Assembly (NCBI GenBank): GCA_964514975.1
Contig: CAZESS010000015.1
Span: 1 to 54,957 of the forward strand
Reading direction: 5' to 3'
Origin: an uncultured Thermoplasmatales archaeon
GTDB taxonomy: Archaea > Thermoplasmatota > E2 > UBA202 > DSCA01
DNA length: 54,957 nt
Position 1 is the stretch's first letter. Each line of letters begins with the position of its first letter. Of this stretch, positions 2,781 to 37,270 are shown piece by piece. The notes beneath the pieces are model-generated. The model had not been told where the DNA came from. It searched no databases and worked only from the letters and a program-made list of their open reading frames with translations. Position numbers and translations under genes: made by a program.

Positions 2781-3270
2781 CTATGGGGTCCAGGTGCCCG
2801 GCGCGGTGACGTAGACGAACACACCCATGCCCCTGGTGATGGCAAACCCGGGCGGCGGCGTCACACCGACCGTGTAGGACTCAAACGTGCTGCTGGTCGC
2901 ATTCCAGTAGGCAGCGATGCTGCAATAGGGCACCGACGGGGCGAGCGAGCTCGCACTCGTTGCAGCGGCATCAAACCAGCCAATCGTGTTCCATCCCGTA
3001 AACAAATCAACCGCAACAGTTGACAATGGCGCGCCCGTCACCGAAAACGTATCGGACGTGTTCACATACACAAAGTAGCCGACGCCGTCCTCGATAGCGA
3101 AGCCATCCCCGGGTGTCACGCCAACCACGTATGACTCAAACATGCCAGCCGAGGCGTTCCAGTAGGCCACGATTTCGCAGCCCGTAATTGCCTGGCCCAG
3201 CGAGCTCGCAGAATAGTCGTTCTCGACGGGCACCGTTACCAGGTTCCAGCCGGGAGAGAAAGAAAAGATG
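2781..3270 (-). repeat. Shared C-terminal domain, copy A
   Basis: GWNLVTVPV..ASSLGQAITGCEIVAYWNAS..GVGYFVYV..GWNTIGWF..GMGVFVYVT, with high DNA identity to copies B and C. Confidence 0.9.
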
Positions 3271-4457
3271 TGGCGGACCCCGGTAATGGTGAGCGTGCTG
3301 ACCGTAAACATGGTGTTCCCGGTGCCCGCGGACGCGATGACGCCGACGGATGCGATGTCATGTCCCGTTGGCGTGTCGTCGGTCACCACCGGCACATCAC
3401 ATGCAACCGTGTAATTCCCTGATGCGTTGGTGGTCGTGGTCCATGTCATGTCGGCGCGCGGGATGGTGACCGTGACGGTTTCATTCGACACCGGGATACC
3501 GGTGGACGTATTGTAGACACCACCCGTTATCGTGACGGTGTCCCCAGCCTGCGCCGTCGACGGCACGAGGTGCTGGGTTACCGTCACCGGCGGGCTGACA
3601 TGGCTGTACCCGGTAAGATTGGCATGTATCCGCGTGGTTCCGTTCGGCGAGGTACCGTTCACGATGTACCTGGCGGTGTTTTCGGCATCCGGCGAATACC
3701 AGGACTGCTTTGAACCATTGGTGCCGCCCCGGACATACAGCGTGGGCAGTGTCCCGGCGGGAACGGTGACGGTTTCCGTCCCGTTGCACATATGCGGCAT
3801 CGTTTCCTGCTGCTGCCCGGCGAAGGTTTCGTCGACCAGACCCTGCACCCAGATGGAGCCCGACGTGTTGGTCGTTGAAGATACCGTCCAGCTGTCGCCC
3901 ACCTGCAACGGAAAATCATATTCCTCCGCCGGCGGATGCTGCGAGCCGTTCACATGCGCTACGTAGTCGAGGTCGATGACCTGATGGATGACACCGGTGG
4001 AGGTGATGTTGTATGAGATGAGCGACAGGTCCGCCCGGCGCATGTACAGGTCGCCGGTGATAATGCCGTCCATGGGGCCCGACATGCTCTGGTAGGAGAT
4101 CTGGCCGGTTATGTTGCCGGTGAGGTTGAGAGCATATGCATCATACGTGGTGGCATTCTGCGTTACCAGGGTGATACCGGCAACGCTGACGGTGAGGTCG
4201 GTGATGGTGCCGTCGAACGAGCCGTTGGGAGAGTCCAGGTATACGTCGGCGTTGTATGTCCATACGTCGCCGATCGACCATGCCGGCACATCTGTCTCAT
4301 TCGATGCAAAAGCAGGAGCCGAAGCAGGAGAAGAAAGAGAGAAAAAAAGAGGGGGTGAAACGGGGACGGCAGCCGCCGGTATGCCGACGAGGCACATCGC
4401 TGCTGCTACTGCCAGAACTGTGGTAACAGCCGCATGGCGGGATACCTGTCCCTTCAT
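2781..4457 (-). CDS. Secreted protein: beta-rich N-terminal domain with VTVPAGT motif, Ig-like domain, shared GWN-repeat C-terminal domain
   Basis: 558-aa ORF with hydrophobic signal peptide and many N-x-S/T sequons. The C-terminal ~165 aa match three other ORFs in the window. Confidence 0.8.
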   Translation of the reverse strand: MKGQVSRHAAVTTVLAVAAAMCLVGIPAAAVPVSPPLFFSLSSPASAPAFASNETDVPAWSIGDVWTYNADVYLDSPNGSFDGTITDLTVSVAGITLVTQNATTYDAYALNLTGNITGQISYQSMSGPMDGIITGDLYMRRADLSLISYNITSTGVIHQVIDLDYVAHVNGSQHPPAEEYDFPLQVGDSWTVSSTTNTSGSIWVQGLVDETFAGQQQETMPHMCNGTETVTVPAGTLPTLYVRGGTNGSKQSWYSPDAENTARYIVNGTSPNGTTRIHANLTGYSHVSPPVTVTQHLVPSTAQAGDTVTITGGVYNTSTGIPVSNETVTVTIPRADMTWTTTTNASGNYTVACDVPVVTDDTPTGHDIASVGVIASAGTGNTMFTVSTLTITGVRHIFSFSPGWNLVTVPVENDYSASSLGQAITGCEIVAYWNASAGMFESYVVGVTPGDGFAIEDGVGYFVYVNTSDTFSVTGAPLSTVAVDLFTGWNTIGWFDAAATSASSLAPSVPYCSIAAYWNATSSTFESYTVGVTPPPGFAITRGMGVFVYVTAPGTWTP

Positions 4458-4463
4458 CGTTGG

Positions 4464-4965
4464 CTACAGGCCCTGTCCATTCCAGACGCCCGGGCCGGTG
4501 ACGTAGACGAACACACCCATGCCCCTGGTGATGGCAAACCCGGGCGGCGGCGTCACGCCGACCGTATAGGACTCAAACGTGCCGCTCGACGCGTTCCAGT
4601 AGGCAGCGATGCTGCAGTTTGGAACTGCCGGGGCGAGCGAGCTCGCACTCGTTGCAGCGGCATCAAACCAGCCAATCGTGTTCCAGCCCGTGTACAGGTC
4701 AACCGCAACGGTTGACAATGGCGCACCGGTCACCGAAAACGTATCGGAGGTGTTCACATACACAAAGTAGCCGACGCCGTCCTCGATAGCGAAGCCATCA
4801 CCAGGGGTGATACCCACGACAAATGACTGGAACATGCCAGCCGAGGCGTTCCAGTAGGCCACGATTTCGCAGCCCGTAATTGCCTGGCCGAGGGAACTCG
4901 CCTTGTAGTCGTTGTCGACCGGCACCGTTATCAGGTTCCAGCCCACAACGAGGTCGAATTCGACG
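4464..4965 (-). repeat. Shared C-terminal domain, copy B
   Basis: 4747-4957 matches 33496-33706 at 210/211 nt by manual comparison. Confidence 0.9.
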
Positions 4966-5960
4966 GTCTCGGTCGCCGAGATATTCACCGTCGTCGGCGA
5001 CGACCAGTTGCTTTCGACGCCCCATTCATCTTTTGCTTTGACCTTTACGTCGTAATCGCCCGGCTGCGTCCAGGTGTGGTCAGCGGTTGCTGTGGCGCCG
5101 GATGTATATGGCCCGAGCCAGCCGCTGTCCGTGCCGTCGCCCCAGTCAAACATGTATGAAATGTTGTCTCCATCCGGGTCCGTAGTGCTCGCCGAGTAGG
5201 TATAGGACTCGTTGACGAGACCAGTTGTCGGACCGCTGGGTGCCGCCGGCGTGGCCGGCGGGTCTGAAACCGTTCCATGCAGCTGGAACGACCTGTCCTC
5301 CGTTGTATCGGGCGGAGATGCGCCGTCCTGCCAGGAGAATCCGTCGCCCTCTGGCGAGTTCATCCAGAGCAGCCAGTCAGGCCCGTCGGGGTCGTCATGG
5401 CTCTGTATCGCCATCCATCCCTCGCTGAGGGTGAACGGCGTGGAAAAGTTGTAATGGAACTCCCAGAGGCTGAACCCGCTGTAGTCGTCGCCGGTGTCGG
5501 TGTAGGTGACGTTGGCCGCATCCGCGCTGATGTTGGTCACCAGCGTGGAGGGAACATTTGTCTGGTCGTTGATGTCATCAGAATAAAACGTTATCCAGAA
5601 GTTCATCCCGTTTGGGTCTCCCTCAACCCATTGTGTGCCGGTGTGGTAGGCGGTTATCCCCCACCAGGTAACCCCGGTGATGGTGCCGGTTGCGTTCCAG
5701 AAGTTGTCGATTATCTTGTATCCTTCGCCTGCATCGGTGTTGCCGGCCGACCAGCTGCCGCTCGGCGAGGTATAGTTCTGCTGGAACAGTATCTGGCTCA
5801 ACGGCGCCGGAAACGTGACCGGGTCCGCTGATTGCTTTATGCTGGCGGTAGCGTCATCCGTGGTCAGTGCGTCCTGAGAGCGTGCCCCGGCGGCATTGGC
5901 TGCCGTAAAAGCCGCCCCCATCATTACTATTGCAAGTAATATAGCCATGTGTTTTCTCAT
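4464..5960 (-). CDS. Secreted PKD-domain protein with shared GWN-repeat C-terminal domain
   Basis: 498 aa with signal peptide, an uncharacterised beta domain, a PKD motif (YMFDWGDGTDSGWLGPY..HTWTQPGDYDVKVKAKD) and the shared C-terminal domain. RBS GGAGG upstream. Confidence 0.85.
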   Translation of the reverse strand: MRKHMAILLAIVMMGAAFTAANAAGARSQDALTTDDATASIKQSADPVTFPAPLSQILFQQNYTSPSGSWSAGNTDAGEGYKIIDNFWNATGTITGVTWWGITAYHTGTQWVEGDPNGMNFWITFYSDDINDQTNVPSTLVTNISADAANVTYTDTGDDYSGFSLWEFHYNFSTPFTLSEGWMAIQSHDDPDGPDWLLWMNSPEGDGFSWQDGASPPDTTEDRSFQLHGTVSDPPATPAAPSGPTTGLVNESYTYSASTTDPDGDNISYMFDWGDGTDSGWLGPYTSGATATADHTWTQPGDYDVKVKAKDEWGVESNWSSPTTVNISATETVEFDLVVGWNLITVPVDNDYKASSLGQAITGCEIVAYWNASAGMFQSFVVGITPGDGFAIEDGVGYFVYVNTSDTFSVTGAPLSTVAVDLYTGWNTIGWFDAAATSASSLAPAVPNCSIAAYWNASSGTFESYTVGVTPPPGFAITRGMGVFVYVTGPGVWNGQGL

Positions 5961-6008
5961 GTTTTGCCTCCACGTAAGTAATGTGAACTGGTTATATAAA
6001 TGTTTGCG
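5961..6008 (-). promoter_or_regulatory. Archaeal TATA box (TTTATATAA) with BRE-like CGCAAA, plus RBS GGAGG, for the 498-aa gene
   Basis: Minus strand reads CGCAAACATTTATATAACC...GTGGAGGCAAAACATG. Confidence 0.6.
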
Positions 6009-6035
6009 GTTTTGACAGGATATATTCTATGCTCA

Positions 6036-6078: not shown

Positions 6079-6081
6079 TTT

Positions 6082-9000
6082 TTAGGGCCCGGCGTTCCCG
6101 AATATCCGTATGTTGAGGATGGTTGCCGTAATCTCTTTCACCGCACGGTTGCCGGCGACATCGTAGGCCTCTATGGTGATGGTGTGCTCGCCGAACAACG
6201 TTTCATCGAGGACGTAGGATATCTCTTCCTGGAACATGCCCTTGGCGGTGCCGTCGAGATACAGGGTTGCACTGTCAACACCGGATGTAGCCGGGTCTGT
6301 GACGCTTGCCTCGATCGAGATCTGCCCGATGATGATGGTGCGTCCACGTGGCAGCGGCATGATCTCCCGGTTGAAGATGTAGAGGTTTCCGCCGGGCTTG
6401 TGCAGCGTTATCTCGGGTGCATCGCCGTCTATCTTCACCGTCTTGGAATGCGGGGTTTCCTCGTTGTCCTCTGTGTCGACCGAGTAGTAGCTGATGGTGT
6501 GCTGGTCGTGCTCCCTGATGGTGAACGGCCCGGTGTACTCGTTCCAGTCGCCGTCGTCGATGCGGTAGTAGGTTGTCGTCGCGTCGCCATCTGGATCGGT
6601 GGCGCTGAGCATCGCCGTCACTGCACCGGTGTACCAGCCGTCGTTGCCGTCGGGCGACGACGGGTTCAGGGTGATGCTGGTCTGCGGTGCCTCGTTGCCG
6701 CTGATGTAGACGGTCGTGCTCGCGGTCGGCGTCTTCTGACCGGTCTGATGGATGCCGTAGTAGTAGATGGTGTAGGTGCCCTCGTCCAGCGTGAATGGGG
6801 TGTAGTAGCGGCTGTATTCACCGGTTATCTGTGTGCCCTTGTTGACCCGGTACCATATCTCCGTGATGCCCATGCCCTGTGCCTTGTCGAAGTCGAAGCC
6901 TATCTTGGTCTCCGTGGTGATCTCGTGTTTGCCGTCAACCAGCTCGTGTGGCCCGTCGAAGAAGATCAGGTCCGTGATGTCTCCCATGGCAACTCTGAAC
7001 TCGATGACATGGTGCGGGGTTTCCTCGTTGCAGGCAAGGTCGACCGCCCAGTATTCCAGGGTTATCTGGCCGGGCGTGAAGTGGAGGTTGACATACTGGT
7101 TGACATCTCCGGTCTTTTCGGCGCCGCCGTTTATCCTGTAATGGATCTGCCAGGGGTTGTCGTCGTCCTCTGCCTTGATGGTGATCTTGGTGTTCGGCGT
7201 GGGGTTGCTGTTCTCTATCCAGGTCGGCGTATGCCAGGAGGTCGGCGGGGTGCTGTCAGACATGTCGCTGGCGACCCAGAAGGTCTCGTTGTCGTAGCTG
7301 ACGTGGCCGAGGCCGTCGGTTGCCCTGATATCCAGCGTGTGGATGCCCGTGGTCGGGAAGTTGAACACATAGGGGTTGGCAACGCTTGTCCAGGCGCCGC
7401 CGTCAAGGCTGTACTGTATCGCCAGCGCCGGGCTTGCATCGGTGGCGCTCAGGATGATGTCGGTGCCGGTTTCCACGACCCAGTCGTTGTACGAGCAGCC
7501 GGGGTCGCTCGGGATGCCGACGGTCTTGTTGATATCCGGCGGGGTGTCGTCGACGATGAAGGTCACGTTGTCGTAGCCGGTGTTGCCGAGCTCGTCGGAT
7601 GCGATGATCTCGAGGTAGTGGACGCCCTCACCGCTAAGGGTGATGGTGTACCGGAGCGGCGTGACGGTCGTCCAGTTCGACCAGCTGCCGTTGTACCAGG
7701 TGCGGTAGGTGATGTTCTTCCAGCCGACGCCGCCGCTGCATCCCTGGTCGGAGGCGGTGAAGTCGATGACGGTGCTGCTGGTGATGTAGTATTTATCACC
7801 CGGGAACACGACGACCTTGGGCTCGCCGACGGTGTTCTCTATCGCGGGCGGCGTGTTGTCGACCTTGACATCTCTGGTGTGATGGGTGCCCTCGTTGCCG
7901 AGGTTGTCGACCGCGTACCATATGAGCGTGTGGTTGCATTCAACCGGGATGCTGAACGTTGTCTGGGTGGCAGCGACGCTGTACCAGCTGGTACCGCCGT
8001 CGTAGCTGTACACAATCTCGGCGATGCCTGAGGCACAGGCCGGATACTCGGTGGTATTGATGTAGATGGTGGTGTCCGAGGTGATCCATTCTGTGGTGCC
8101 GTCGGTATAGTACGGGGTGCCAAGCTCAAGGGTTGCCGTCGGAGCGGTGTCGTCGACGTTGACATCGGTGAAATGATGGGTTTCCTCGTGACCGAGGTTG
8201 TCGACCGCGTACCATTCGATGCTATGGGTGCACTCGTCGGGGATGTCAAACGTCGCCTGGCTGCCAACAACGGTGTTCCAGCCGGCGCCATAGTTGTACC
8301 ATATCTCCGCGACGCCGGATGCACATGCCGGATGATCGGTTGCGTTGAGATATATCGTCGTGTCCGGGGTGATCCATTCCTCGGTGCCATCGGTGTAATA
8401 GGGCGTGCCATATTCGAGCGTGGTTGATGGTGCAGCGTCGTCGACGTTCACCGTCTGCGTATGCGTTGTCTCGGTGTGACCGAGGTTGTCGACCGCATAC
8501 CATTCAAGGGTGTGCGTGCAGTTGTCCGGGATGGTGAACGACACGTCGCCGGACGCGGTCTGCCATGTTCCGTTGTATGTATAGTATATCGTGGCGACGC
8601 CAGAGGCGCAGGCAGGTCCGTCGGTTGCGTTGAGATATATCGTGGTACCGGTGCTAATCCAGGTATCTGTGCCATCGGTGTAATGCATGCCGCCGTACTC
8701 AATCGTGGTCGATGGCGGGGTGCTGTCAACGTTCACGTCGGTGGAATGGGTGGTCTCGGTGTTGCCGAGCTCGTCGACCGCATACCACTGGATGGTATGG
8801 CTGCATTCCGTCGGGATGGTAAACGTCTCGTTGGCATACACGGTATCCCAAGTAGCGCCACCATCTGTGGAATAGTTGATCCAGGCAACACCAGAGGCGC
8901 AGGCCGGATGGTCGGTGGCGTTGAGGTAGACCGTGGTGCCCGTGGTTATCCATTCGTCGCCGCCGGAGGTGTAATAGGGCGTGCCATATTCGAGCGTGGT

Positions 9001-12000
9001 TGTCGGTGGGGTGTCGTCGACATGGAAGGTCTCGTTGTCGTAGACGGTGCGGCCCATCGCGTCGGTGATGGTGACGTTGAGCCAGTGGTCGCATTCGCTG
9101 TCAAAGTAATGCACGTAGGGCAGGCTGCCGGTGATGTCCACCCAGCCGCTGCCGTTGTTGTACATGACGGTCATGTCGCAGCAGCCGGTCTCGGCGTCGA
9201 TGGTGATCGGCGTACCGGTTGTGACGTAGTACTCGTCACCCGGTGTAACCGTCACGTTGGGGTCGCCGACGGTCTTGTAGAGCACCGGCGGGTAGTCGTC
9301 GACATGGAAGGTCTCGTTGTGCCATCCGGATGCCGGCCAGCGGTTGCCGAGGTTGTCTTCGACGTAGAACTCCAGGTAATGGGTGCATTCCTCTGGCAGA
9401 TATATTTCCTCGCTGATGGTACCGCTTGGCACGCTCTCGTTGTAATATGTCCATGAGCCGTTGTACCATATCCTGTAGTGGAGATGCACGGAGCCAACGA
9501 CACAGTCAAGCGTGCCGTTGTCCGTGGCGTTGATCCATATCGGCGTGCCGGTCTCTATGCAGTATTCATCCAGACCGACCATCATCTTGGGCTCGCCGAC
9601 TTCCTTCGTCACATCGGGCGGGGTGTTGTCGACCATGACATGCTGCCGCCATGAATCCTCCATATTGCCGAGGTTGTCGAAGCTACGTATCGAAAACCGG
9701 TGCAAACAGTTATTGTCGTCGCCAAGGGAGGAAAGGTTAAATGCGCCGGTATACGGCGTCCATGCCGTGACGGTTTCCCAGCTTGCTCCGTTCCACCGGT
9801 TGATATAGTATTCTATGTGGTCAACACCTGATGCGCATCCGACAGTGTTGTCAGTCGCGTTCAGATATATCGGTGTTTCAGACGTGATATAGTGGTCAAG
9901 AGTACCAGTAAAGTAAGGTACATTCCAATAGACCGGGGAACCCACATAGAACGGCGAACCATATTCCTTTTCAGTGGTCGGAGGGGTATCGTCAACATAA
10001 TGGGTCTGATAGATGAGGGTGCTTTCATGGCCAAGGTTGTCAACAGCGTATGCCTCAATGGTGTGCTCGCATTCACCGTTCCAGACAAAGTCACCAAAGG
10101 TGAAGGTGGTGTTACCATAGGTCGTATAGGTGTGCCATGAACCGTTATAGTAGATACGGTAATTGAGCTCGGCGATGCCAGAGGAACAACTGCCGGCGTC
10201 GCTGACGTTCAGCCAGAATGGGGTATCAGAGGTGACATTTTCGCCGTACTGCGGCATGCCGACATCCTTGTTGACGGTCGGTTTGATGTTGTCGACATTG
10301 ACGGTATAGTTGTATTCCTCCCATTCGCCCATGTTGTTTGTAATATTGTAGTATATCGTGTGCGTGCAGTTGTCCATGACGCCGATGTCATCAAAAGTAA
10401 AGGTCACGTTGCTGTTCCAGGCGCCAGTATGCCAGCTGCCGTTGTTGACATTGTAGTATATCTGGTAGTTCGTATGTGCCATGTCGCCGGTCGCATTGAT
10501 ATAGATGGGCGTATACTTGGTAATATAGTCCATGTAGTAGGGTGAACCAAATTGCAGGGTGGCATCGGGCAGACCACCGCCAACATGGAAGCCCCATGTG
10601 CGATAGCCGCTGGACGGGAAGCGATTGCCCAGCTCGTCCTCGATCCAGTACTGGAGACGATGCGTACAGTTTTCGGTGAAGTCGATTGAGACGTTGCTGC
10701 CAGATGTGGCCCACGGCGTCCAGGTACCATTGAACTGTGTCCGGTAGTGGATGGTGAAGTTTCCGACCGCGCAGTCCGAGGCAGGCATATCGGTGGCGTT
10801 CAGCCATATCGGGGTATCGAGCGTGACATAGAACCATGAGCCGGACTGGAAGCTCGGGCTGCCAACGTTCAGGTCTTCATCTGGAGCACTATCATCAACG
10901 TATAGCTGTCGGAAGTTATGCGGCGTCTCCTCGTTGCCGGCATAGTCGGTCGCCCAGTACTCGATGGTATGGTTGCATTCCTCGATTATGGTAATGTTGA
11001 AAGGCTGCATCAGGGTGCCGTCACCCGATTGTACCAGCGTGGTGTTGTCACGCCATATCCGGTAATGCATCTCCCACATACCGACAGCCGGGCAGCCGGT
11101 GTCACTGCCGTACATGAGAAGCCAGGTATCGGTCGTGATATGTGTCGCGGTGGATGTGTCATGCGGGTACTTGGGATCGCCAATCTCCAGCGACGACGTG
11201 GGGGGTACGCTGTCGACATAGAATGTCTCGTTGTGCCAGCCAGTTGTCGGCCAGCGGTTGCCGAGTTCGTCTTCCACCCAGTACTCAAAGTAGTGGATGC
11301 AGTCTTCGCTGAAGCCATAGGAGAAATTGGTGTCAGTGGTGGTGTTGACGAGGTATCCGCCATCCCACCAGATGCGGTAGTGCAGTGTCCAGTTGCCCTC
11401 GGAGCAGTCGGGAAGCTCGGTCACATTGAGATAAACGGTGGCATCATGGTTGACATAGTAGTTGCCGGTGCCGTCGTCGTAGCCGCCGCCGACAACCGTC
11501 TTGTTCACCAGCGGGGGCGTAGAGTCAACATGGAAGGTCTCGTTGTCGTACACGGTGCGGCCAAGGCAGTCATATGCCCTGATGTCAAGGGTATGGGTGC
11601 ATTCATCGTTGAAGTTGAACACGTAGGGCACCGTGATCTCCTGCCAGGCGCCGCCGTTAACACTGATTTCCACGGTCATGCCCGGGCAGCATCCCGGATC
11701 GGTAGCATCGATATATATCGGCGTCAGCGTGGTCACATAGTATTCTTCATCCGCTGTCACCGTGATGTTGGGGTCGCCCACGGTTTTGTCGATACTCGGA
11801 CCGACGTCGTCCACGTAGAACGTCTGGTTGTGGACATAGTACGGAGATGGAAGGTCCATCGCTGGCGGGGTTGGCGGAGTCGGGCAGGGTCCAATGCTAA
11901 CTGCGCTGCTCTCCCATGGGTCATAGTCGATGGAGCCGTTGAGCCTGTCCTGTATCTCGCTTTCCACGGTGGTATCCCACCAGTTGTTCTCCGCGTCCAT

Positions 12001-15000
12001 TGTGTCTGTCTCATAGTTCTTTAATGCAAGTGCACCGGGTTCAGCGCCGCCATCGTAGAAGTTGTTGTAGTGGAATTCTATGGTACTGACATCGCATCCT
12101 GTTAACGCACGGGCCGCATTTTCCTCTTCAGGCGAGAAGTTGTTGTAGTAGAAGGTGTTGTATTCAACGCTCACGTTGTGGGAGCCGACCGGTCCGTAGC
12201 TGGTGCCCCAGAGAGCCAGTCCGTAGGACGGGTAGTAGTATCCGGAGTAGGGCCAGTATGGCGAGGGGCCGATGTACTGGAAGGTGTTGTTGGTGATTGT
12301 TCCACCGCGCACGTTTATCTGGGCACCATGGTAGCTGCAGTTTTCGAAGAGGTTACAATGCACCTGAGCGTCAATCAGGTTGTAGACGTTGATACCTGTG
12401 CCGCAGTCATGGATATGGTTGCCCTTGATAACCGGGTTGTGGAACTCGAAATCATTCGGGTCGCCGCCAGCGAAGATACCGTAAGAGCCATCCGGGTTCT
12501 GGATATCGTTGTACGACACTTCAACATCGGTGTAGGTGATGAAATCTGTGAACCCACTGGTGAAACCAAGTTCCGCATTGACATATCCTGGGCCAGGGGC
12601 ACTTGGATTGGTTGCACTGGCGTTAATCCGATTGTGGGTGATGACAATGTCCTCGAAATAGCCGCTTCCCGTGGAATCAGTACCAGCATCCGGGTCATGA
12701 CCCACAGTGATGCCGGACCAGGCATACGTCGAATGGACATAGTTGTACGCCAGGACGACGTTGCTTCTCGTCGCATTCACCGGACCGCGTACATCGATGG
12801 CCGTGTAGAAGTCGATGACTTCAAAGCCGTTAAAGACAACATTGTCTGCCCTTATTACGACGGTGAAACCGGTTGTGGTCGGGCTGGGATCGGCGATGGT
12901 ACTCTCGCCACCGCTCCGGCCGCCCTCTACGGGCTCCACGTTGGCCTGTGCACCGTATAGAGAGAGTTCCTTGTCAATTGTGATTGCTTCGGTATATGTT
13001 CCTGCATACACATAGATGGTGTCGCCGTCGCTCGCTGCATCGATGGCATCCTGGATGCTGTCGAAGTGGGTGACGCCCCAGCCGGCCGTACTGGCATCGA
13101 AGTCATCGTCGACGTAGTAGGTACCAGGTGCAAGGCCATAGTTCCCGAGGTCGTCCACTGCATAATATTCAATGTAATGCTTGCATTCATCGGGTACCGT
13201 GAAGCTCACGTTGGAGTTCAACGGGCCGCTCTGCCATGCTCCCCAGCCACCGGTCATGTCCCATATACGCCAGAAAATCTGGTAGGAACCGACCGCACAG
13301 TCGCCAGCGTCAGTCGCATTCAGATAGATCGGCGTCGTCGTCGTGATACACCGGTTGCCGTCACAGACACCCGTCGGGTTGCCATATTCCTTGGTCACCA
13401 TCGGCGGTGTGTCGTCGACACGGTAGTGCTGATAGTAATGCATGGTTTCCGTGCCCAGGTCGTCAACCACATACCATTCAAGCATGTGCTCGCATTCCTC
13501 GTCAAAGGAAAACATGACGCTGCTGTTCATCGGCCCAGTAGTGAAATCGGGAATCGGGTCGCCGATCTTCCAATAGCGGTAATATATCTGGTAGGAGCCA
13601 ACCGAGCATTTGCTGAGGTTGTCGGTCGCGTTAATCGTTATCTCCGAGGTCGTCGTGACATACGTGGTATAATGGAAGGTGACGGACAACGAAAGCGATG
13701 AGCCAGAGGCACTGCCCGTGAACTCGCCTTCGAAGTACTGGCCATCATAGGTGCCGTCGCCGGTCGCATAAATTCGTCCATGCGTGGTGCTGGGGAATCC
13801 GGTGTGATCGGTGACATAGGTGCCGTTGAACCATCCGCCAGAGCCGTCAGACCAGGTGAAGGAGCCATAGCCGAAGCCCTGGGTCGCATAGGTCCCGTTG
13901 GTCGGTATGAACGAGTTGTGATACATGGTGATCGTACCCACCAGAGCGCCGGTCGTCGTGCCGCTCCATTCCTGTTCAGCCCAGAGGACACTTGTCAGCG
14001 GGTCGGGCAGCACGATGTCGGAGCCAAAGACCTGCGGTATCCAGAATCCCGCTGGCTCACTGGTATACCACTCGGTTTCACTTGACAAGCTGGCGCTCAC
14101 GGTCATCGTCTCGTTTTCCATGTACATGGGACCGTCGTGTTCCTTCCAGGTGACAGGTGGGGTGTTATCGACCATGACATGCTGTAGATGTGATGACTCG
14201 ATATGGCCGAGTTCATCGAAGCTGCGCACCCTGATGCGGTGCAGACAGCTATTGTTATCGCCGATGGATGAAAGGGTAAACGGCCCAGTATATGTATCCC
14301 ACGATGCAACGCCTTGCCAGCTCGAGCCATCCCACCGGTTGATGTAATACTCTATGTGGTCGACACCGGAGGCACACATGCCGGGGTTGTCCGTGGCGTT
14401 CAGATAAATCGTGGTGTCAGACGTGATATAATGGTCAAGGGTACCGGTGAAGTATGGTACATCCCAGTCCACGGGTTCGCCCTCATAATATGGCGTGCCG
14501 TATTCCTTGGTGGAGGTCGGCGGGCTATCGTCAACATAGAATGTCTCGTTGTCATACACGATGTTGCCGACGCAGTCATAGGCCCTGATGGACAGGTTGT
14601 GCATGCATTCATCCGGCATATAGATGGTGTCCGAAACCGTTATCTCCATCCAGCCGGAGTCATAGGTCGCATTCCAGATGCGGTATTCAACGGTCATGCT
14701 CGGGCAGCAGCCGGCGTTGGTCGCATCAATCGTAATCGGCGTGCCCGTGGTCACATAGAAATCTGGCATGCCGCCGCCGGGTATGTTCGGCGTGCCGACA
14801 GTCTTGTCTATCGTGGGAGCCGAATCGTCGACATAGAAGGTGATATTGTGGATGACGCCGTCGCCGTTGCCCAGCGAGTCCTCGGTGTAGTACTCAAGAT
14901 AATGTTTGCATTCCTCGTCAAATGTCAGGATGAGATCCTGGTAATATGTCCGCTGCCAGGTCGTCCAGGTACCGTTCCATATACGGTACCATATCGAGCT

Positions 15001-18000
15001 GTTGTCCGCCGCGCAGGGCGCACCAGGATCGGTCGCGTTGACATAGATGGGCGTGGCAGTGGTGACGCATGCATACGGCGTGTTGGTGGTATAGGTCGCT
15101 CCGTAGATGGTGCCGTCGTTGCCGTCCTCGACATCGGTGGCGGTGGAGCCGCTGCCCTCGTTGAAGTCCCACCATGAGACAAGGTTGGATGTCACAACGT
15201 TCTGATTGTAGTTGTTCTGGACATCGGCAGCAGAGAGCGCATCATCGTAAATGCGGACATCGTCAATCGCTCCCTCGAAGCCTAAATAGGGAGGTGGGCT
15301 GCCGTCAGCCATGCATCCAATGTACAGTTCGTTGCCGGTGGTAACAGCGCCAACTGTGCCGGCTGCGGCACTCGAATCAAGCGAGCCATCAATGTAGAGC
15401 TCAATGGTTCCGCCGTTTCTGGTGGCAACTATGTGGTGCCACTGTCCGTCGTTGATGGTAACACTCGACGTCAGGCTTGCACTGTTCGTACCGTCATCGA
15501 TGAGCCAGCGTATCCGGCCGCTGCTCTGCATCTCAAGGTCATAGGCAGGCTGCCAGTTGCCAATGGCGTTCTTGCGGACGATGCCGCCTCTGCTGTCCGA
15601 GGAGGTCTGAATCCATGCTTCGACGGTCCAATCAGATGAACCCATGTCGAGCGATGCGGCATGAGGGACTTCGACGTAATTGCTGCCATTGAAGTCAAGG
15701 GCGTAGTTGCCGCAGGAGGGCTCGCCTCGCTCGATGGCGCTCGACGGCGGGGTGTCGTCGACATAGAACGACCTGTTGTGTATGGTCGTCTCGGTGTTGT
15801 CCAGGTTGTCAACCGCATAGTATTCGATGTAATGTTTGCATTCCTCGTCAAAGGTGACATGGACAACGTCGCCGATGCCGCCAACCTGCCATGTGGTCCA
15901 TCCATCGGTCTGGTTCCAGAGCCGGTAATGGATACGCCATGAGCCCACGTTGCAGTCGCCATAGATATCCTGAGCGAACAGGGTAAGCTCGGTCGACGTC
16001 GTAATGTAGGTGGCTCCCTGGCTCTGCGGCCACTTGGGATCGCCGACCTGCAGGCCGGACTGCGGCGGGGTGTCATCGACCCGGTGGGTCTGGTTGGTCA
16101 CCGCTTCCATGTTGCCCGCGTTGTCGTCGCTGTAGAACTCGAGGTAATGGATGCATTCACCGCTCAGGGTGAAGTTGCCCGTGTACACCATGAAGTTGTC
16201 GTTGAGACCGACGCCGGTGCTCGGGGCGGGCGTCCATGCACCATTGTACCATACACGATAATAGGTTGCGTTGACGCCGGAGCCGCCGGACGGGTTGTCC
16301 ACGGCGGTGAAGTTGAACTCGGTGCTCGATGTGACGTAGTTAGCTCCACCTGTCGGACCCCATTTGGGCTCCCCAACCGTCTTGGTGGTCGTGGGCGCCT
16401 GGTTGTCGGAGCCGCCGGCCGCATGGGGCGAGAGATGCCAGACATGTGCCCAGACGTAGCCGATGTAGGTGCCATCGAAATAATCGGTGTTCACGCCGGT
16501 GACGTTGCAGAGCTGCCATTCCCCGGCGGTTCCATTCCAGAAGAAGACGCCCTGCAGGTCGCCTTCGTCGAGGCCGGAGGCAGTCAGGTCGGCCGCCGTA
16601 TAGTATATTGTAATATTGATAGGCCAGTCGACACCGCTGGTGTCGTTCATGCTCACGTCGACAAAGGTGCCGTCGAGCGCGTAGCCGCCCACGGCGTCGC
16701 CCTCGGGGTTTTCCTCGTATTTGAGCGTGGTGACGCTTGCGGGAGTCGAGGTGTTCACGGTGACCGTTGTCCCGGTCTCGTCCTTGCCGCCGGTCGTGGT
16801 CTCGGTGCCGGCGGGCACGTCCTCATAGTAGGAGTCCTCGACGCCGGATTCCTGGCTGTTGTTGTAATCGTCGTCAGGCCATGTGTCGTCCAGCCACGGC
16901 CGGAAGTCAACGTTATCGGACACGTTGTCGCCCTGACCGTACGGGGTGTCGGTCGCGTTGTGATACGGACCAGTTGAATGACCCCACCAGTTGTAGGTGG
17001 CGTTAACCACGGTTGCCGCAATATTCAAAACGCCATAGTGTCTGTTTCCGTAGATGTTGTTGTTATGTATCTCCGTCCCGGTGACCGGGTGGAGGTAGTC
17101 ATCTATGCCGCTGCCATTGCCGTTATTATAAATATTATTCTTCTCAACGGTTACATTGAAGGTGTTCAGCAGAACCCCCATCTTGCAGTCGGATACAGTA
17201 TTACCCGATATAAGATGGCCGCCAACTGTTCCGGTTGAGGTGACGCCATCCCCGGTAATCCGGATGCCATATCCGTTATCCAGCGACTCTGGCGGGTCGT
17301 AATACGTTCCCCATGTATAGAAATAATCAACCAGATCTGGGCTCCCGGTAACCGTATTATTGACAATGGTGGTGTTAACCGCATCGTATCCGGCATAGAT
17401 ATTATAATAACATCCGCTAATCGTGTTTTCTGCTATGACGTTATCCTGCTGGCCATCTATATTCGCATCGTCCCACATATTGATGCCATACCAAGCAACG
17501 TCTTTCCCGTCAATCGTATTGTTCACGATGCGGTTGTCGTTACAGGCCACCCCCTGAAGGTCGTATTGCCCGCCGGACAAATGGATACCATAATAGAAGT
17601 TTTCTATAACGTTGTCCATAATGGTGCAGTTACTCGAGCCAAATAAGAGAATCGAATTCATAAGATATGGATTACTAGCTCCGTCAGCATAGATATCTCC
17701 GCTCGTCGCATTCAAAATGACATCTTTGATAGTGAGCCCCTGTATAGTGATGTTGTCACAGCCGCGGATGTAAAACCCGGGATGAACATGCGTGGTCGGA
17801 GAACAAGGAGGTGCCTCGCCTGTTTGTGCCGCATTGATTATTGTACTCCCTGGCCCTTCCACTGATTGTATCGTAATATCTGTCTTATTATCCATATAGA
17901 CGTTTTCTAAGTATGTCCCGGGGTAGATATCGACCATCGTGCTCGTCACGTTGTCAATGGCATCCTGTATGCTAGCCCAGTATCCATCAGCACCATCTAT

Positions 18001-24636: not shown

Positions 24637-24665
24637 ATATTTATGTGCCTCGATTAATTTATACC

Positions 24666-24902: not shown

Positions 24903-24908
24903 TACCCC

Positions 24909-25463
24909 GTGCCGCTTCCATCCGACGTCCTGGCGAAACGGGTGAACAACGAGATACGGGAATGCAAACGGGCGTTCGAGCACCATTTCACCGTCACGGA
25001 GCCCGGCCTGCCATCGTTTCCCGTCACCCTACAGGTAAAACTGGTGAACACGCCCGGCCCGGTCATGGACAACGGCCGGGTGCACAGCCGCTACACCCAC
25101 CTGCTCACGGTCACCGTCACCGAAAACTATCCCTACCAGACGCCCATCGCACGGTGGCGCAGTCCCATCTTCCATCCAAACATCATGCCACCCAAAGACG
25201 GCGGCTACATCTGCACCAAGCTGCTCGACGAATGGACCTTCCGGTCTAACCTGCCGGCTTTCATCCGGGGCATTGAATCCCTGCTGCTCAACCCCAACCC
25301 CGACGACCCCTACGACAACGACACCTGCACCCGCGCCGCCGCCTACTTCAACAGCACGTCCTACACGCCGCCGGTGACAGCGCAGCCACAAAAAAGCCAC
25401 ACCAAACCCGTCATCCTGAGCGACAATGATAAAAATCACCGGGGAAACACCCAAGACGCCTAG
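24909..25463 (+). CDS. Ubiquitin-conjugating enzyme E2 (UBC fold)
   Basis: KRVNNE helix 1, NYPYQTP, FHPNI..GYIC (HPN motif plus catalytic Cys), LLDEW and SLLLNPNPDDP. Confidence 0.93.
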   Translation: MPLPSDVLAKRVNNEIRECKRAFEHHFTVTEPGLPSFPVTLQVKLVNTPGPVMDNGRVHSRYTHLLTVTVTENYPYQTPIARWRSPIFHPNIMPPKDGGYICTKLLDEWTFRSNLPAFIRGIESLLLNPNPDDPYDNDTCTRAAAYFNSTSYTPPVTAQPQKSHTKPVILSDNDKNHRGNTQDA

Positions 25464-26079
25464 ACGCCATCCCCCGCCATCATCCGCGGACATCGTCTTC
25501 AGCTACACCCCCGGCATGGATACAGCCGGCGTCCGGGCATACATCGCAGACCGGCTCCATCGGGCGGGCATCGACCGCATCAACGGCGCCAGAGAGCCCC
25601 ATGAAACAAAGGTCACCGCACGCCAGACCAGCGAACGCACCCTTTACATCAGGCAGAAGGTCATCGACGACCTGATCGTCCACTGCGCGGAAATGGCCGC
25701 CGACCGTCTCGAAGCATTGGGCTTCCTAGTCGGCGACCTCGGCCGATGGAACAACACCCCCTTTTCAATGATATATGACCTGGTGACCGGGCAGCTCGAC
25801 GCGACCGCGACATCGGTGCGCTTCCGCCAGGACGCCTTCGAAGACATGTTCGACGCGCTCGACGAGCTGAGCTACGACTACGTGCTCATCGGCTGGTATC
25901 ATTCCCATCCCGGCTACACCAGCTTCATGTCCTACGTCGACCTCGACACCCAGCGGCGGATGTTCAACCAGCCGTTCCACGTCGCGCTGGTCGCCGACCC
26001 CATCAGCCTGGAGCTCAAGGCCTTCCGGCTGCTGGACGACGAATGCGTCGAAATACCCTACGCCGTCGTCAAAAAATAG
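25426..26079 (+). CDS. JAMM/MPN+ (Rpn11/CSN5-like) metallo-isopeptidase
   Basis: EALGFLVG followed by GWYHSHPGYTSFMSYVD (E..HxH-x7-S-x2-D), then ALVADP. Confidence 0.93.
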   Translation: MIKITGETPKTPRRHPPPSSADIVFSYTPGMDTAGVRAYIADRLHRAGIDRINGAREPHETKVTARQTSERTLYIRQKVIDDLIVHCAEMAADRLEALGFLVGDLGRWNNTPFSMIYDLVTGQLDATATSVRFRQDAFEDMFDALDELSYDYVLIGWYHSHPGYTSFMSYVDLDTQRRMFNQPFHVALVADPISLELKAFRLLDDECVEIPYAVVKK

Positions 26080-29970: not shown

Positions 29971-29978
29971 AGTATCCC

Positions 29979-33215: not shown

Positions 33216-33715
33216 TCATCCCTGCCCGTTCCATGTGCCCGGCGCGGTGACATAGACAAACACGCCCATACCCCTGGTAATGGTAAACCCGGGCGGCGGC
33301 GTCACCCCGACCGTATAGGACTCAAACGTGCCGCTCGACGCGTTCCAGTAGGCAGCGATGCTGCAGTTCGGCACCGACGGGGCGAGCGAGCTCGCACTCG
33401 TTGCAGCGGCATCAAACCACCCGACCGTGTTCCAGCCCGTATAAAGGCTGACGGACACGGACGAAATCGGAAGCCCGGTCACCGAAAACGTGCCCGAGGT
33501 GTTCACATACACAAAGTAGCCGACGCCGTCCTCGATAGCGAAGCCATCACCAGGGGTGATACCCACGACAAATGACTGGAACATGCCAGCCGAGGCGTTC
33601 CAGTAGGCCACGATTTCGCAGCCCGTAATTGCCTGGCCGAGGGAACTCGCCTTGTAGTCGTTGTCGACCGGCACCGTTACCAGGTTCCAGCCCACAACGA
33701 GGTCGAGGGCAACGG
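33216..33715 (-). repeat. Shared C-terminal domain, copy C
   Basis: Near-identical at DNA level to copies A and B. Confidence 0.9.
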
Positions 33716-36692
33716 TCTGCGCTGCGCTTATCGTCATCGAAATCGGCGTGGACCATGTGCTTTCGGCACCATGGTTATCCTTCGCCCGGGCTCGCACGAC
33801 GTATGACCCATTGCTCGACCAGGCATGGGAAAACGTGTACGGTGTCCCCGAGGCAAATGGGCCGACCCAGTCGCTGGTCGTGCCGTCGCCCCATTCAACG
33901 TAGTAGTAGAGGTCGTCGCCGTCCGGGTCGGTGGCGCTCACCGTGTACGAATACGTGGTACCAGGCGACCCGCTCGCTGGACCGCTCAGCGACGGCGTGG
34001 CCGGCGGACTGTTGGTGGTCAAGATACCGCCGGAGTAACAGGTGATATGCCCGTCTCTGCCGCCGGCGACCATCTCGGCGGTGCCGTCGCCGGTAACGTC
34101 GGGAATTGCGGCGAGGGCGTCAACGGGAGACGTGTAGGGGACGGGCGTATGGAGCTGGGTGCCGTCGGTGCCGTCGAAGAAATAGCAGTAGTTGTTGCTG
34201 TACAGGGTGCCGATGAAGACGTCGTTGACGCCGTCGCCGGTGACATCTGGTGCAGCGGCAACGGAATGGCTCTGGTCGTACAGGGACTGTGTCCATATCT
34301 GGCTGCCGGTCTGACCGTCGATGACCATGGCCGTGGAACCGGTATGCGATGGAAGGATGTCGGGATGCCCGTCGCCGTTGACATCGCCGAGTGTATCGAA
34401 GCGGAGGATGAGCGTGGAGCCGATGGTGGTACTGTAGAGCTGGCTGCCGTCAGTCGCGTCGAGGCCATAGATGTTGCCGTAGCTGTAGAAGTCACCGATG
34501 ATGACGTCCCGGATGCCGTCGCCGCTGGCATCGTCTATTTCCGCGAGCGCCCAGACCGAGGTGCCGGGAACGGTAATGCTCCAATAGGTGCTGCCGGTGG
34601 CGCCGTCGATGGCGAACACATATCCTGTCGTTTCAGCCTCGTTGGAGGCGCCGGCGATGACGTCCGGCTGTCCGTCGCCCGTGGCATCCTGGATGCCGAT
34701 AACCGAGAACACGGGGCCGCCGAGCGGGCATTTCCAGATGGCGGTACCGGTGAGGCCGTCCAGACAGTAGACCCGTTTGGGTCCGGTGTCGTCGCTGTCG
34801 TCACCGGTGGCGGCGAGAACGTCTGCGACGCCGTCGCCGTTGTAGTCGTAGGTGCAGTCCACGTCATACACCCATCCGCCATTCCCGTATTCATGGGTGT
34901 CATACCGCCAGATGGTTTCACCGGTCCGGGAGGACAGCGTGTAGATTGACTTGTCGCCCCAGGGCGTCCCCACGACGATGTCAGGATATCCGTCACCGTC
35001 GACGTCGGCCTCCGTGGTGGCAACCTCCTCCTGGCGGTAGATGGAACCCGAGTATATCTCTCGCTCCCAGAGCACCGCCGGCTCACCGTCCGCGTTTCCG
35101 TTGAGACAGCGGATGTAGTTGTCCTCGGTGCAGAGAACAACATCTGCGACACCGTCGCCGTTGACGTCGGGGATGGAAAGGATGGCCTTGGCGCTCAGGT
35201 CAATCGGGCCCTCGGGGACGTCATAGTCCCATATCGTCGAGGCGATCGGATATGTCTTGTATTCGCCTGCCCCCTGCACGGATACCAGGTAGGGGTCGTC
35301 GTCCGGGTCGTTGCTGTCGATCGACAGCGTACCCGTATACGTCTCGTTGGCTGCGGGCTGGAACCAGACGGGGATGCCAACGGATTCCAGCGGCTGTAAG
35401 GTCAGCGGAAGTGAGACGGTGTCACCGACGATGAAATTGCTGTCGCTGCTGTTGATAGCCGTGATGTTCAGCGATGCATCGCCATAATTTTTCACGTTCA
35501 TCGTCCAGCGTCGATAGGCGTTGACGCGGATGGTGCCATAGGTATGCGAGGACTCCGGAACATGGATGCCGGGCCCATCATAGGTGCCATGGCCGGTCAG
35601 CGATATCTGCACGGTGGGATGAATCGGGTCGTCGCATGCCACGGTGGCGATCGCATTCAGGTCGCTCACATCGGTAGGCGCATAGTTGAGGGGCACGGAG
35701 AGCTGGTTGTTCGGTGCGATGGTAATCGGGAACGAGATACCACATGACAGGTAGGACGAGCCGGCGCCGCTGAAGGATACACCGGTAAGCTGAAGAGGAG
35801 CACTCCCGATGTTTTTGACCACCGCGTTCCAGGTCGCCTGTGTGCCGATGGTGACCAGCCCGTAGTCATGGCTGGGCGTCAGGAGCTGTATCTCCGGCGT
35901 CCCCCCGCCATAGATATCTATCTTGTACAGGTTGTCCATGCCGCCCTGTCCCTCATCGCAGTACCAGAGATAGGTGCCATCCCAGACCACGCCGGCCGGG
36001 CGGGAATATTCGGATTCATGGCTGTACACGACCGAGCCCGTGCTGGCGTTGACCTGGTACAGGGTGTCAGCCCAGTAGTCGGCCACCCAGAGCGTGTCAT
36101 TGTGAACGCAGAGGTCCCATGGCTGGTCGTCCGGCGCCGGATAATCAGTGAGAATGGTTCCCTGGTCGTCCACCTTGTAGATGTGTCCCTCGGGGTTGTA
36201 ATAGGTGGAAACCCAGAAGTCGCCGTCGTCATGGGCGATACCCGACATATACCGGTCGGGAAGATCAAACGTCGCCGTCTGTGTGCCGTTCATGTCGAAC
36301 TGGATGGCGGTGGCGGGGTCGCTCGGATGGTCAGTGGTCCAGAAATGCGTGCCATCATGGGTGAGGCCGTATGCATCTCCCTGCGGACCGGTGCACTGCA
36401 ACGTGTAGCTGCCCGTGGCGGGGTCGATGCGGTAGACCTGGTCACCGTTTGAGCCATAGATGCCGCAGTACAGATAGGTTCCATCGTAGGCAAGGCCGGA
36501 TGCCCCGTCAGGTATCTGGTATACATCGAGAATGGTCCACGCCCGGTCGGACTGCAGGGGTGCCATCTGGTCCTGCACGGAGGCATCCTCGGCTCTGGCG
36601 CCCATGGGTGCATGTTGCACCGTGTTCGCCAGCACAAAAACAATGCCCACACATATCACAATGCCCAATAAACGAGATGTCTTCCCACACAT
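33216..36692 (-). CDS. Secreted multidomain protein: N-terminal beta-propeller, two ASH/choice-of-anchor-D-like Ig domains, FG-GAP/PQQ-like repeats, PKD, shared C-terminal domain
   Basis: GLAYDGTYL/GLTHDGTHFW propeller blades; KNIGSAPLQLTGV and KNYGDASLNITAI; repeated D(V/A)xGDGxxD(V/I); YYVEWGDG. Start moved to MCGKTS after RBS GGGGAG. Confidence 0.85.
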   Translation of the reverse strand: MCGKTSRLLGIVICVGIVFVLANTVQHAPMGARAEDASVQDQMAPLQSDRAWTILDVYQIPDGASGLAYDGTYLYCGIYGSNGDQVYRIDPATGSYTLQCTGPQGDAYGLTHDGTHFWTTDHPSDPATAIQFDMNGTQTATFDLPDRYMSGIAHDDGDFWVSTYYNPEGHIYKVDDQGTILTDYPAPDDQPWDLCVHNDTLWVADYWADTLYQVNASTGSVVYSHESEYSRPAGVVWDGTYLWYCDEGQGGMDNLYKIDIYGGGTPEIQLLTPSHDYGLVTIGTQATWNAVVKNIGSAPLQLTGVSFSGAGSSYLSCGISFPITIAPNNQLSVPLNYAPTDVSDLNAIATVACDDPIHPTVQISLTGHGTYDGPGIHVPESSHTYGTIRVNAYRRWTMNVKNYGDASLNITAINSSDSNFIVGDTVSLPLTLQPLESVGIPVWFQPAANETYTGTLSIDSNDPDDDPYLVSVQGAGEYKTYPIASTIWDYDVPEGPIDLSAKAILSIPDVNGDGVADVVLCTEDNYIRCLNGNADGEPAVLWEREIYSGSIYRQEEVATTEADVDGDGYPDIVVGTPWGDKSIYTLSSRTGETIWRYDTHEYGNGGWVYDVDCTYDYNGDGVADVLAATGDDSDDTGPKRVYCLDGLTGTAIWKCPLGGPVFSVIGIQDATGDGQPDVIAGASNEAETTGYVFAIDGATGSTYWSITVPGTSVWALAEIDDASGDGIRDVIIGDFYSYGNIYGLDATDGSQLYSTTIGSTLILRFDTLGDVNGDGHPDILPSHTGSTAMVIDGQTGSQIWTQSLYDQSHSVAAAPDVTGDGVNDVFIGTLYSNNYCYFFDGTDGTQLHTPVPYTSPVDALAAIPDVTGDGTAEMVAGGRDGHITCYSGGILTTNSPPATPSLSGPASGSPGTTYSYTVSATDPDGDDLYYYVEWGDGTTSDWVGPFASGTPYTFSHAWSSNGSYVVRARAKDNHGAESTWSTPISMTISAAQTVALDLVVGWNLVTVPVDNDYKASSLGQAITGCEIVAYWNASAGMFQSFVVGITPGDGFAIEDGVGYFVYVNTSGTFSVTGLPISSVSVSLYTGWNTVGWFDAAATSASSLAPSVPNCSIAAYWNASSGTFESYTVGVTPPPGFTITRGMGVFVYVTAPGTWNGQG

Positions 36693-36769
36693 GGTGTAAC
36701 ATCTCCCCGGCATTTTTAACATTTTCTAACGCATAATGAAACCTGCATGATGCATGGATAGAAAAAGGG

Positions 36770-37270
36770 CTATCCTCCACCATGCCACACGCCAGGCTTC
36801 GTCACATAGACAAAGATGCCCATGCCCCGCTCGATGCGGAAGGCAGCAGAAGGTGGACTCACCCCGACCAGATAGGATGCAAACGTGCTGCTCGACGCGT
36901 TCCAGTAGGCCACGATGGTGCAGTTGCCGACGGCGCCGCCCAGGCTGCTGGCATTTGTTGCCGTTGTATTGTACCAGCCGAGGGTGTTCCAGCCCGTGTA
37001 GAGGTCAACTGAGACATTCGATATCGGGTTGTCTACCACGCTGAAAATGCCATAGCAGTACATATAAATGAAGTAGCCCACACCATCATCGATGGCGAAA
37101 CCATCTCCGGGCGTCACACCAACCACATATGACTCGAAGGCGCCAGCAGAGGCGTTCCATCGGGAGACGATGCTGCAGCCCGAAAGGTTTTGGCCAAGGG
37201 AAGCAGCCGTATATGTGTTTCCACCGGGGTTAGTAATGAGGTTCCAGCCATGGGATACATAAGCAGTGTA
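36770..37270 (-). repeat. Shared C-terminal domain, copy D (more diverged)
   Basis: GWNLITNP..WNASAGAFESYVVGVTPGDGFAIDDGVGYF..GWNTLGWY..GMGIFVYVT. Confidence 0.85.

Follow-up and report, generated by a model that had tools for sequence, protein, structure and literature searches.

What is the purpose of a domain of about 165 residues that closes four otherwise different exported proteins encoded within one stretch of archaeal DNA? The stretch, referred to here as the window, is the whole of contig C15 (54,957 bases) in the genome of an uncultured Thermoplasmatales archaeon, an assembly of 1.96 Mb in 66 contigs, and the domain, which we call the tail, consists of two repeats of about 83 residues each. 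We consider it moderately probable that the tail is a portable docking module, i.e., one that retains proteins non-covalently at the cell surface, and the tail family appears to be undescribed in the libraries (Pfam, NCBIfam and PDB) and the literature that were searched. A preliminary description of this DNA had reported four open reading frames (ORFs) with a common C-terminal domain; all four are present, on the minus strand, and their last ~170 residues align end to end. The four genes and their tail domains (tail coordinates include the stop codon; E values are those of the tail profile) are the following.

2781..4457, minus strand: gene 1, 558 aa, exported; cargo without a clear family (a sub-threshold CarboxypepD_reg match only)
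2781..3299, minus strand: tail domain of gene 1, reaching the last residue; E 8.7e-100
4464..5960, minus strand: gene 2, 498 aa, exported; PKD domain and tail
4464..4994, minus strand: tail domain of gene 2, the sequence used for the AlphaFold2 model; E 2.7e-104
33216..36722, minus strand: gene 3, 1168 aa, exported; FG-GAP/beta-propeller, choice-of-anchor D Ig-like domains, PKD and tail
33216..33743, minus strand: tail domain of gene 3; E 8.4e-103
36770..42523, minus strand: gene 4, 1917 aa, exported; parallel beta-helix (NosD-like), two PKD domains and tail
36770..37297, minus strand: tail domain of gene 4, a second sequence subgroup on a separate branch of the tree; E 4.1e-94

The likeness of the four tails is far beyond chance, since a first profile built from them and searched against the 20,329 six-frame ORFs of the genome recovers each window tail at E 1e-94 to 1e-104. 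When 21 tails of the genome are aligned (alignment A1), identity to the gene 2 tail is 60-89% for the remaining three of the window, the tail of gene 4 is 60% identical to the first tail of the alignment, and many aromatic residues (W, Y, F) are almost invariant. The two-fold internal repeat that had been described is borne out by the recurrence of the motifs GWN, ASSL, C, WNAS, F.SY.VG and G.G.FVY in both halves and by an alignment of the individual repeats (A2), which extends over ~83 residues with 26-49% identity to the first repeat-2 sequence. Each repeat has one conserved Cys. The reported ending in PG(T/V)W, without a transmembrane helix or a PGF-CTERM motif, is also as described: the tails finish in ...PGTWTP, ...PGVWNGQGL, ...PGTWNGQG and ...PGVWHGGG, so that PG(T/V)W is followed by 2-5 polar residues and no helix. 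At the DNA level the tails of genes 1-3 are 86.5-91.2% identical over 465-501 nt, and that of gene 4 matches the other tails in patches only (72-87%).

The cargo that precedes the tails belongs to different families, as the preliminary description had it, but "unrelated" proved too strong a word, for a PKD domain stands immediately upstream of the tail in three of the four proteins. The sole DNA match between cargo parts, 98 nt at 76.5% identity, lies in the PKD-coding part of genes 2 and 3; otherwise the cargo parts of the tail genes have no DNA-level match with one another. Two cargo domains among the window carriers belong to NCBI "choice-of-anchor" families (NCBIfam), namely choice_anch_D in gene 3 (80.2 bits, cut-off 45) and choice_anch_Q in gene 4 (41.8 bits, cut-off 25), families defined by their co-occurrence with alternative C-terminal anchors. 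The product of gene 1 is rich in sequons, with 3.6 per 100 aa. Genes for Cdc6/Orc1, for both subunits (A and B) of topoisomerase VI and for RtcB mark the window DNA as archaeal, and the named relatives of window proteins, few of which have names, come from Thermoplasmatota or from Thermoplasmatales metagenome-assembled genomes.

Comparison of the tail with sequence libraries was unproductive. Beyond sub-threshold hits, Pfam offers no family for the tail on the four whole proteins (E <=0.01) or on the 21 isolated tails (E <=10), NCBIfam gives no match to it on the four whole proteins (E up to 0.1) and PDB sequences give none at E up to 10. A kinship with some characterised carbohydrate-binding or catalytic family, which the preliminary description had singled out as damaging to an anchoring role, was thus found in none of Pfam, NCBIfam or the PDB sequences. 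The nearest approach by sequence is that of one single member, which reaches Lectin_L-type_dom at E 0.078, and the carbohydrate-binding module (CBM) rows in the fold searches stand at noise level (CBM11 1v0a, Z 2.8; CBM_E1, E 1.3). Full-text literature searches found no paper describing the domain.

Structure prediction, which had been proposed as a check, yielded a confident model without a clear fold match in the PDB. The AlphaFold2 model of the gene 2 tail is compact (predicted local distance difference test score, pLDDT, 93.4; predicted template-modelling score, pTM, 0.86) and comprises two units, each of two strands, a helix and four further strands; a single repeat modelled alone is also predicted to fold (pLDDT 90.3). 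Foldseek against the PDB returned nothing at E <=0.001 for the whole domain or for one repeat, and in VIA-align searches of 48,161 chains no row reached Z 5, the best being Z 2.8 for the whole domain and Z 4.2 for one repeat. The latter row is 4ei2_A, with a root-mean-square deviation of 3.2 A over 67 aligned residues. RCK_C-type domains make up 17 of the first 27 VIA-align rows for the single repeat, with no RCK_C or TrkA_C match in Pfam, and these domains and jelly-roll capsid proteins recur among the fold matches at noise level only. Among predicted structures, the BFVD model A0A8D9C8P8 from an uncultured marine phage, labelled "putative hemin binding protein", matches the tail at E 2.5e-5 (template-modelling score 0.64 on the query, 15% identity), and the 30 nearest clusters in the ESM Atlas have no Pfam family in common. 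As modelled, the tail fold is thus without a recognised relative among solved structures, which does not prove it to be a new fold.

The tail is found well beyond the window. Twenty-three ORFs of the genome carry it (four in the window and at least 19 elsewhere), and its confinement to the C-terminus, anticipated in the preliminary description, holds throughout the genome: the domain ends 0-11 residues from the end of the ORF in 23 of 23. A copy on contig C46 is interrupted inside the domain by the contig end. The N-terminus is intact in 21 carriers, the other two being cut by a contig end and by a run of N, and every one of the 21 has a signal-like hydrophobic start, as expected of a domain restricted to signal-peptide proteins; in a rough control, such a start was seen in 214 of 1024 other ORFs of >=300 aa. 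The carriers contain 0.9-4.5 N-glycosylation sequons per 100 aa as compared to a background of 0.58. Their cargo families include Peptidase_C25, S8, M14, M20/M28, PAD_porph, beta-helix, FG-GAP and PKD. An M14 carboxypeptidase-like gene in the window itself (49129-50886, minus strand) is 52% identical over ~499 residues to a tail-bearing M14 protein encoded on contig C9 and stops where the tail would begin, the two forming a natural pair with and without the tail.

A wider search, in which the 21-tail profile from A1 was run against 1.84 billion representatives clustered at 50% identity, found 4554 tail clusters at E <=0.001, 1364 at 1e-10 and 272 at 1e-30. Position, copy number and membrane helices were counted over the best 150 of the 4554 cluster representatives. 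The tail lies <=15 residues from the C-terminus in 138 of these 150, and in a single one is it combined with a C-terminal membrane helix, so that the two kinds of ending come close to excluding each other. It is present in 35 of 41 related genomes, with 1 to 56 matches per genome, and in an even sample of the phylum it occurs in 42 of 301 genomes, including all 20 from the window's own order.

A view of what the tail replaces is provided by cohesin paralogues. The genome holds 8 Cohesin and 7 Dockerin_1 matches, and four adjacent pairs, each consisting of a dockerin-bearing gene followed by a cohesin-bearing gene, are found on contigs C4, C5, C14 and C16 (loci L090-L093); with them this archaeon, whose exoproteins are rich in peptidases, possesses a cellulosome-like system. 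Three of the four cohesin proteins of these pairs end in a membrane helix and a basic tail, and the fourth (contig C14, an ORF of 1862 aa; Cohesin 39.9 bits) ends in the shared tail. The first 281 aligned residues of the C14 protein are 59% identical to a membrane-anchored paralogue, and because the N-terminal parts are homologous and the ends are, respectively, the tail and a membrane helix, the tail occupies the anchor position of the paralogue. Since one cohesin protein itself ends in the tail, the tail lies beneath the cohesin-dockerin layer.

The evolutionary history of the tails differs from that of the proteins that carry them. A tree was built from 62 tails of 7 genomes, with only the best-scoring copies of each genome included, and in it the tails group by genome and not by cargo: six of the 7 genomes each form one clade with Shimodaira-Hasegawa-like approximate likelihood-ratio (SH-aLRT) support of 95-100, and the genome label changes 6 times along the tree, which is the minimum possible, against a mean of 36.4 when labels are shuffled. 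Orthologous C25 proteins from different genomes are 65-68% identical in their cargo and 34-42% identical in their tails, whereas two of these proteins, from genomes G022 and G034, have tails that share 65-78% identity with those borne by different cargo in their own genome. Such concerted evolution, genome by genome, would be anticipated if a single co-evolving partner had to accommodate every tail of a cell.

The gene at the very start of the window was considered as well.

1..2676, minus strand: fusion of Peptidase_C25 (gingipain-like) and PAD_porph (Pfam), cut by the contig start; probable further tail carrier

The preliminary description had predicted that this truncated gingipain-deiminase gene, too, ends in the tail. 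Among the homologues of the truncated gene there are 26 full-length fusions of the same kind (C25-PAD), and in 10 of them the C-terminus is this tail. A remote look-alike tandem domain (hhalign probability 92.3%) takes its place in 4 and another domain without a family match in 6; 2 have a sub-threshold Dockerin_1 at the very end, 1 more is dockerin-like by eye, and 3 are truncated or odd-looking. Of 120 listed PAD homologues, 34 carry PF18962, the type IX secretion (T9SS) tail, by hand count from a precomputed Pfam column, and the named ones are bacterial. The tail is therefore positionally equivalent to dockerin-like and T9SS tails as well as to the membrane helix of the cohesin paralogue. 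The look-alike tandem C-terminal domain, an unassigned one with the pattern W-N-x-I-G-x-P ... P-G-x-A-Y-W-x-Y present twice, was noted in P0182, P0183, P0187 and P0188 from other organisms; its remote relationship to the tail hints at a wider superfamily, and a profile of these four tails has no match in the source genome.

The assembly itself can be followed a little further, because contig ends overlap by exactly 55 bases and the graph is thereby walkable. Bases 1-55 of the window coincide exactly with the end of contig C64 (1070 bases), as do those of the paralogue found on contig C8, and C64 carries the C25-PAD reading frame on through the remaining deiminase as well as an Ig-like region. 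At its other end, C64 has its final 55-mer in common with yet another C25 gene, the third, which lies on contig C47, and there the assembly breaks. The two C25-PAD paralogues (window and C8), which are 42% identical, share C64 as a collapsed contig. Contig C7 has at its end an orphan ORF that encodes a stretch of ~60 residues without a Pfam family and then the tail, and this stretch resembles, by eye, the segment before the C-terminal domain in full-length C25-PAD fusions. In three relatives the C25-PAD orthologues are likewise cut by contig ends, which fits a repeat downstream, and C25-only genes in four relatives end in the tail. An exact 55-nt search of metagenome contigs for the continuation of the truncated gene gave no match, and the metagenome loci searched held no full-length C25-PAD. 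The prediction is thus supported indirectly, by the ten homologues and by a graph that points to an orphan tail, while the join between gene and tail is missing; we regard it as likely that the window gene does end in the tail.

How, then, might the tail work? Under the docking reading, an N-terminal signal peptide would direct export of the protein, and the two beta-rich repeats of the tail would pack into one unit of ~165 residues that attaches to some lineage-specific part of the envelope of the producing cell. The archaeosortase-processed surface-layer (S-layer) glycoprotein, or the glycans that it bears, would be a likely candidate for the receptor. No membrane helix would then be required to keep on the surface such proteins as peptidases, deiminases, adhesin-like proteins of the beta-helix and propeller types and the cohesin scaffold. 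We infer from the observations above that the tail binds at all, what it would bind and that it persists on the mature protein. As first proposed, the docking tag was likened also to the C-terminal domain (CTD) of the T9SS, a cleaved export signal; every indirect test that was run fits docking, and that likeness is the weakest part of the proposal.

Several observations weigh against docking at the cell's own surface. The tail is internal or N-terminal in 12 of the 150 representatives, among them a Cohesin-tail-Dockerin protein and one in which a membrane-anchored stalk bears two copies at the N-terminus; others have an extra CarboxypepD_reg-like domain C-terminal of the tail. Two copies occur in 8 of the 150, and some small proteins consist of little beyond two copies, the last of them C-terminal. 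Non-terminal and two-copy layouts of this kind are as compatible with a head that binds a ligand, or with a lectin-like one, as they are with an anchor; they argue against a cleaved sorting signal and allow for a head of that sort. Also encoded in the genome are archaeosortase A (166.5 bits) and three PGF-CTERM candidates, among them ORFs of 1185 aa on contig C12 and of 880 aa on contig C5, so that the tail would be a second anchoring system and not the sole one. The search for a partner by phylogenetic co-occurrence, as had been suggested, came to nothing when the tables were compared by hand: of the 42 genomes that have the tail, 41 also have archaeosortase A, but it does not discriminate because it is present in 218 of the 301 genomes of the phylum sample. 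None of the unassigned ORFs that flank the window tail genes has a paralogue adjoining a tail gene elsewhere, and 17 metagenome tail loci, mostly from one close relative, showed no new neighbour genes; no partner emerged from gene neighbourhood or co-occurrence. Finally, the source genome's own tails split into several groups in the tree, which contains best-scoring copies only, and gene conversion alone could have produced the clustering by genome.

A broader view of the tail can be put forward as a tentative one, rather less probable than docking as such. It would be a widespread and structurally distinct archaeal system for surface display, absent from the libraries and papers searched, in which exoenzymes, adhesin-like proteins and cohesin scaffolds are fixed by the module to a lineage-specific, co-evolving receptor in the envelope. 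In sediment Thermoplasmatota the system would also be the lowest layer of a surface assembly that degrades protein and resembles a cellulosome.

Among the alternatives, the one that survives best, though we think it unlikely, is that the tail is a substrate- or glycan-binding module of the CBM or lectin kind, directed to detrital particles, polysaccharides or other cells and not to the surface of its producer. The internal and N-terminal copies are readily accommodated by such a role, as in the Cohesin-tail-Dockerin protein, whose arrangement recalls that of a scaffoldin and its binding module, the membrane-anchored protein with two N-terminal copies and the small proteins of nearly two copies; the almost invariant aromatic residues and the presence of adhesin-like beta-helix and propeller proteins among the cargo would suit it too. 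However, no carbohydrate-binding family is matched by sequence, and tails that diverge faster than their cargo between genomes while being homogenised within them would be unexpected of modules that recognise a common environmental polymer. It also sits poorly with a tail that occupies the membrane-helix position of a paralogue and with cargo as catalytically unrelated as C25, S8, M14, M28, PAD, beta-helix and propeller proteins.

Less probable still, and in our estimate quite improbable, is that the tail is a true sorting signal, recognised and then removed by an archaeal export or sortase-like machine, in the way that the T9SS CTD is removed by PorU and PGF-CTERM by archaeosortase. The strongly C-terminal position of the tail (138 of the 150 representatives, 23 of 23 in the genome), the T9SS tail on bacterial homologues of the same cargo and the presence of archaeosortase A in the genome are what one would predict from it. 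On the other hand, a confident and compact fold of 165 residues in two repeats far exceeds the known tripartite signals and is twice the size of the T9SS CTD, the tail has neither a membrane helix nor a basic tail, no recurrent neighbour gene for a processing enzyme was seen in the window flanks, and a second translocation step would be superfluous in an archaeon, which has a single membrane. These points, the non-terminal and two-copy representatives (12 and 8 of 150), the lack of any match to T9SS models and the archaeal host tell against the T9SS CTD analogy in the sense of a cleaved signal, and T9SS-like sorting is less likely than docking or anchoring. The last alternative, an intramolecular stabilising or self-assembly domain of large extracellular proteins, is very improbable. 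A stabilising role is exemplified in Thermococcus by the subtilisin Tk-SP, with its beta-jelly-roll at the C-terminus, and weak structural rows to that domain (3afg_B, Z 3.5; 9ues_B, Z 3.2) speak for this reading, as do proteins of little beyond tandem tail copies. These rows lie, however, within noise, like the best overall (Z 4.2), the close M14 paralogue in the window implies that the tail is not needed for the M14 fold, and the replacement of a membrane helix is left unexplained.

Other features of the window deserve to be recorded. A giant exported protein (6082-19932, minus strand) of 4616 aa begins in a signal-like manner and contains 120 sequons, a Laminin_G_3 domain and a NosD region, but neither a C-terminal helix nor the shared tail. 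An exported protein cut by the contig end (53907-54956, plus strand) likewise lacks the shared tail and matches no Pfam family; contigs C3 and C5 encode two paralogues of it, each of ~1230 aa and ~51% identical. A 570-aa protein (47364-49076, minus strand) matches the Vps62 family (PF06101, E 1.9e-8), an unusual family for an archaeon, and has a signal-like start and five further hydrophobic segments. A compact operon for a putative ubiquitin-like modifier occupies 23842-26079 on the plus strand and includes an E2 of eukaryote type, which is uncommon in a Thermoplasmatota genome.

23842-24636, plus strand: ThiF-type E1
24645-24902, plus strand: 85-aa ORF ending ...PTGGR, putatively ubiquitin-like by size, position and C-terminus only
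24909-25463, plus strand: UQ_con E2, E 1.7e-13
25426-26079, plus strand: JAB/MPN protease

The wider significance of the tail lies in its reach, for it closes 23 exported proteins of one small genome, gives up to 56 matches in that of a relative, recurs in 4554 clusters and is absent from Pfam, NCBIfam and PDB. Uncultured sediment Thermoplasmatota are thought, according to a published account (PMC6461988), to feed on detrital protein by way of extracellular peptidases. If the tail is an anchor, it would explain how gingipain-like, subtilisin-like and metallopeptidases and the cohesin scaffold are retained. It would also offer a simple marker for the prediction of surface proteomes in Thermoplasmatota and, possibly, a new handle for protein display.

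Four known systems invite comparison with the tail. The T9SS type A CTD (Por_Secre_tail, PF18962/TIGR04183), as on gingipains and PPAD, is likewise a C-terminal addition to unrelated secreted proteins, and PAD-type homologues end in PF18962 in bacteria and in this tail in archaea. The tail, however, is twice as large, internally repeated and not strictly terminal, and its archaeal host has no outer membrane to cross. T9SS CTD profiles have no match on the four proteins (Pfam E <=0.01, NCBIfam E <=0.1) or on the 21 tails (Pfam E <=10). A PF18962 search of the source genome gave no hit, and neither did its control. In fold, the CTD is a single Ig-like beta-sandwich of ~70-100 residues as compared to the two ~83-residue repeats of the tail model, each with a helix; T9SS CTD structures are absent from the fold-match lists, which does not exclude a likeness. 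The PGF-CTERM/archaeosortase A system (TIGR04126/TIGR04125) resembles the tail in that exported glycoproteins are retained on an archaeal cell. PGF-CTERM is a tripartite signal of ~25 residues with a membrane helix, which is cleaved and replaced by lipid, whereas the tail is a folded domain of 165 residues without a helix; the tails lack the PGF motif, the hydrophobic helix and the basic tail, and the four proteins have no corresponding NCBIfam match.

Closer likenesses are found among modules that hold proteins without covalent bonds. The type I dockerin (PF00404, with its cohesin PF00963) is, like the tail, a duplicated module that stands at the C-terminus of secreted proteins with diverse catalytic functions; dockerin-like tails take the same position in homologous C25-PAD fusions, and the lineage-specific sequence pattern of the tail is as expected for the matching of partners. 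The tail differs in its length (~165 residues against ~60), and the Dockerin_1 profile, which describes duplicated calcium-binding segments, has no match on the tails, yet the same model finds the 7 true dockerins of the genome, whose cohesins adjoin genuine dockerin genes. The SLH module (PF00395) is also a tandem-repeat module at the end of proteins, holds diverse exoproteins non-covalently on the envelope and lies mostly, but not exclusively, at one terminus. In Firmicutes it occurs on S-layer-associated enzymes and on anchoring scaffoldins such as those of Clostridium thermocellum, and here, too, a cohesin-bearing protein ends in the module in question. The SLH profile has no match on the tails, which have two beta-rich repeats of ~83 residues where SLH has three helical ones, and the host of the tail is an archaeon without peptidoglycan-linked polymers. 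If the surface-display reading is true, the tail and its partner would be an archaeal counterpart of SLH and its cell-wall polymer or of cohesin and dockerin.

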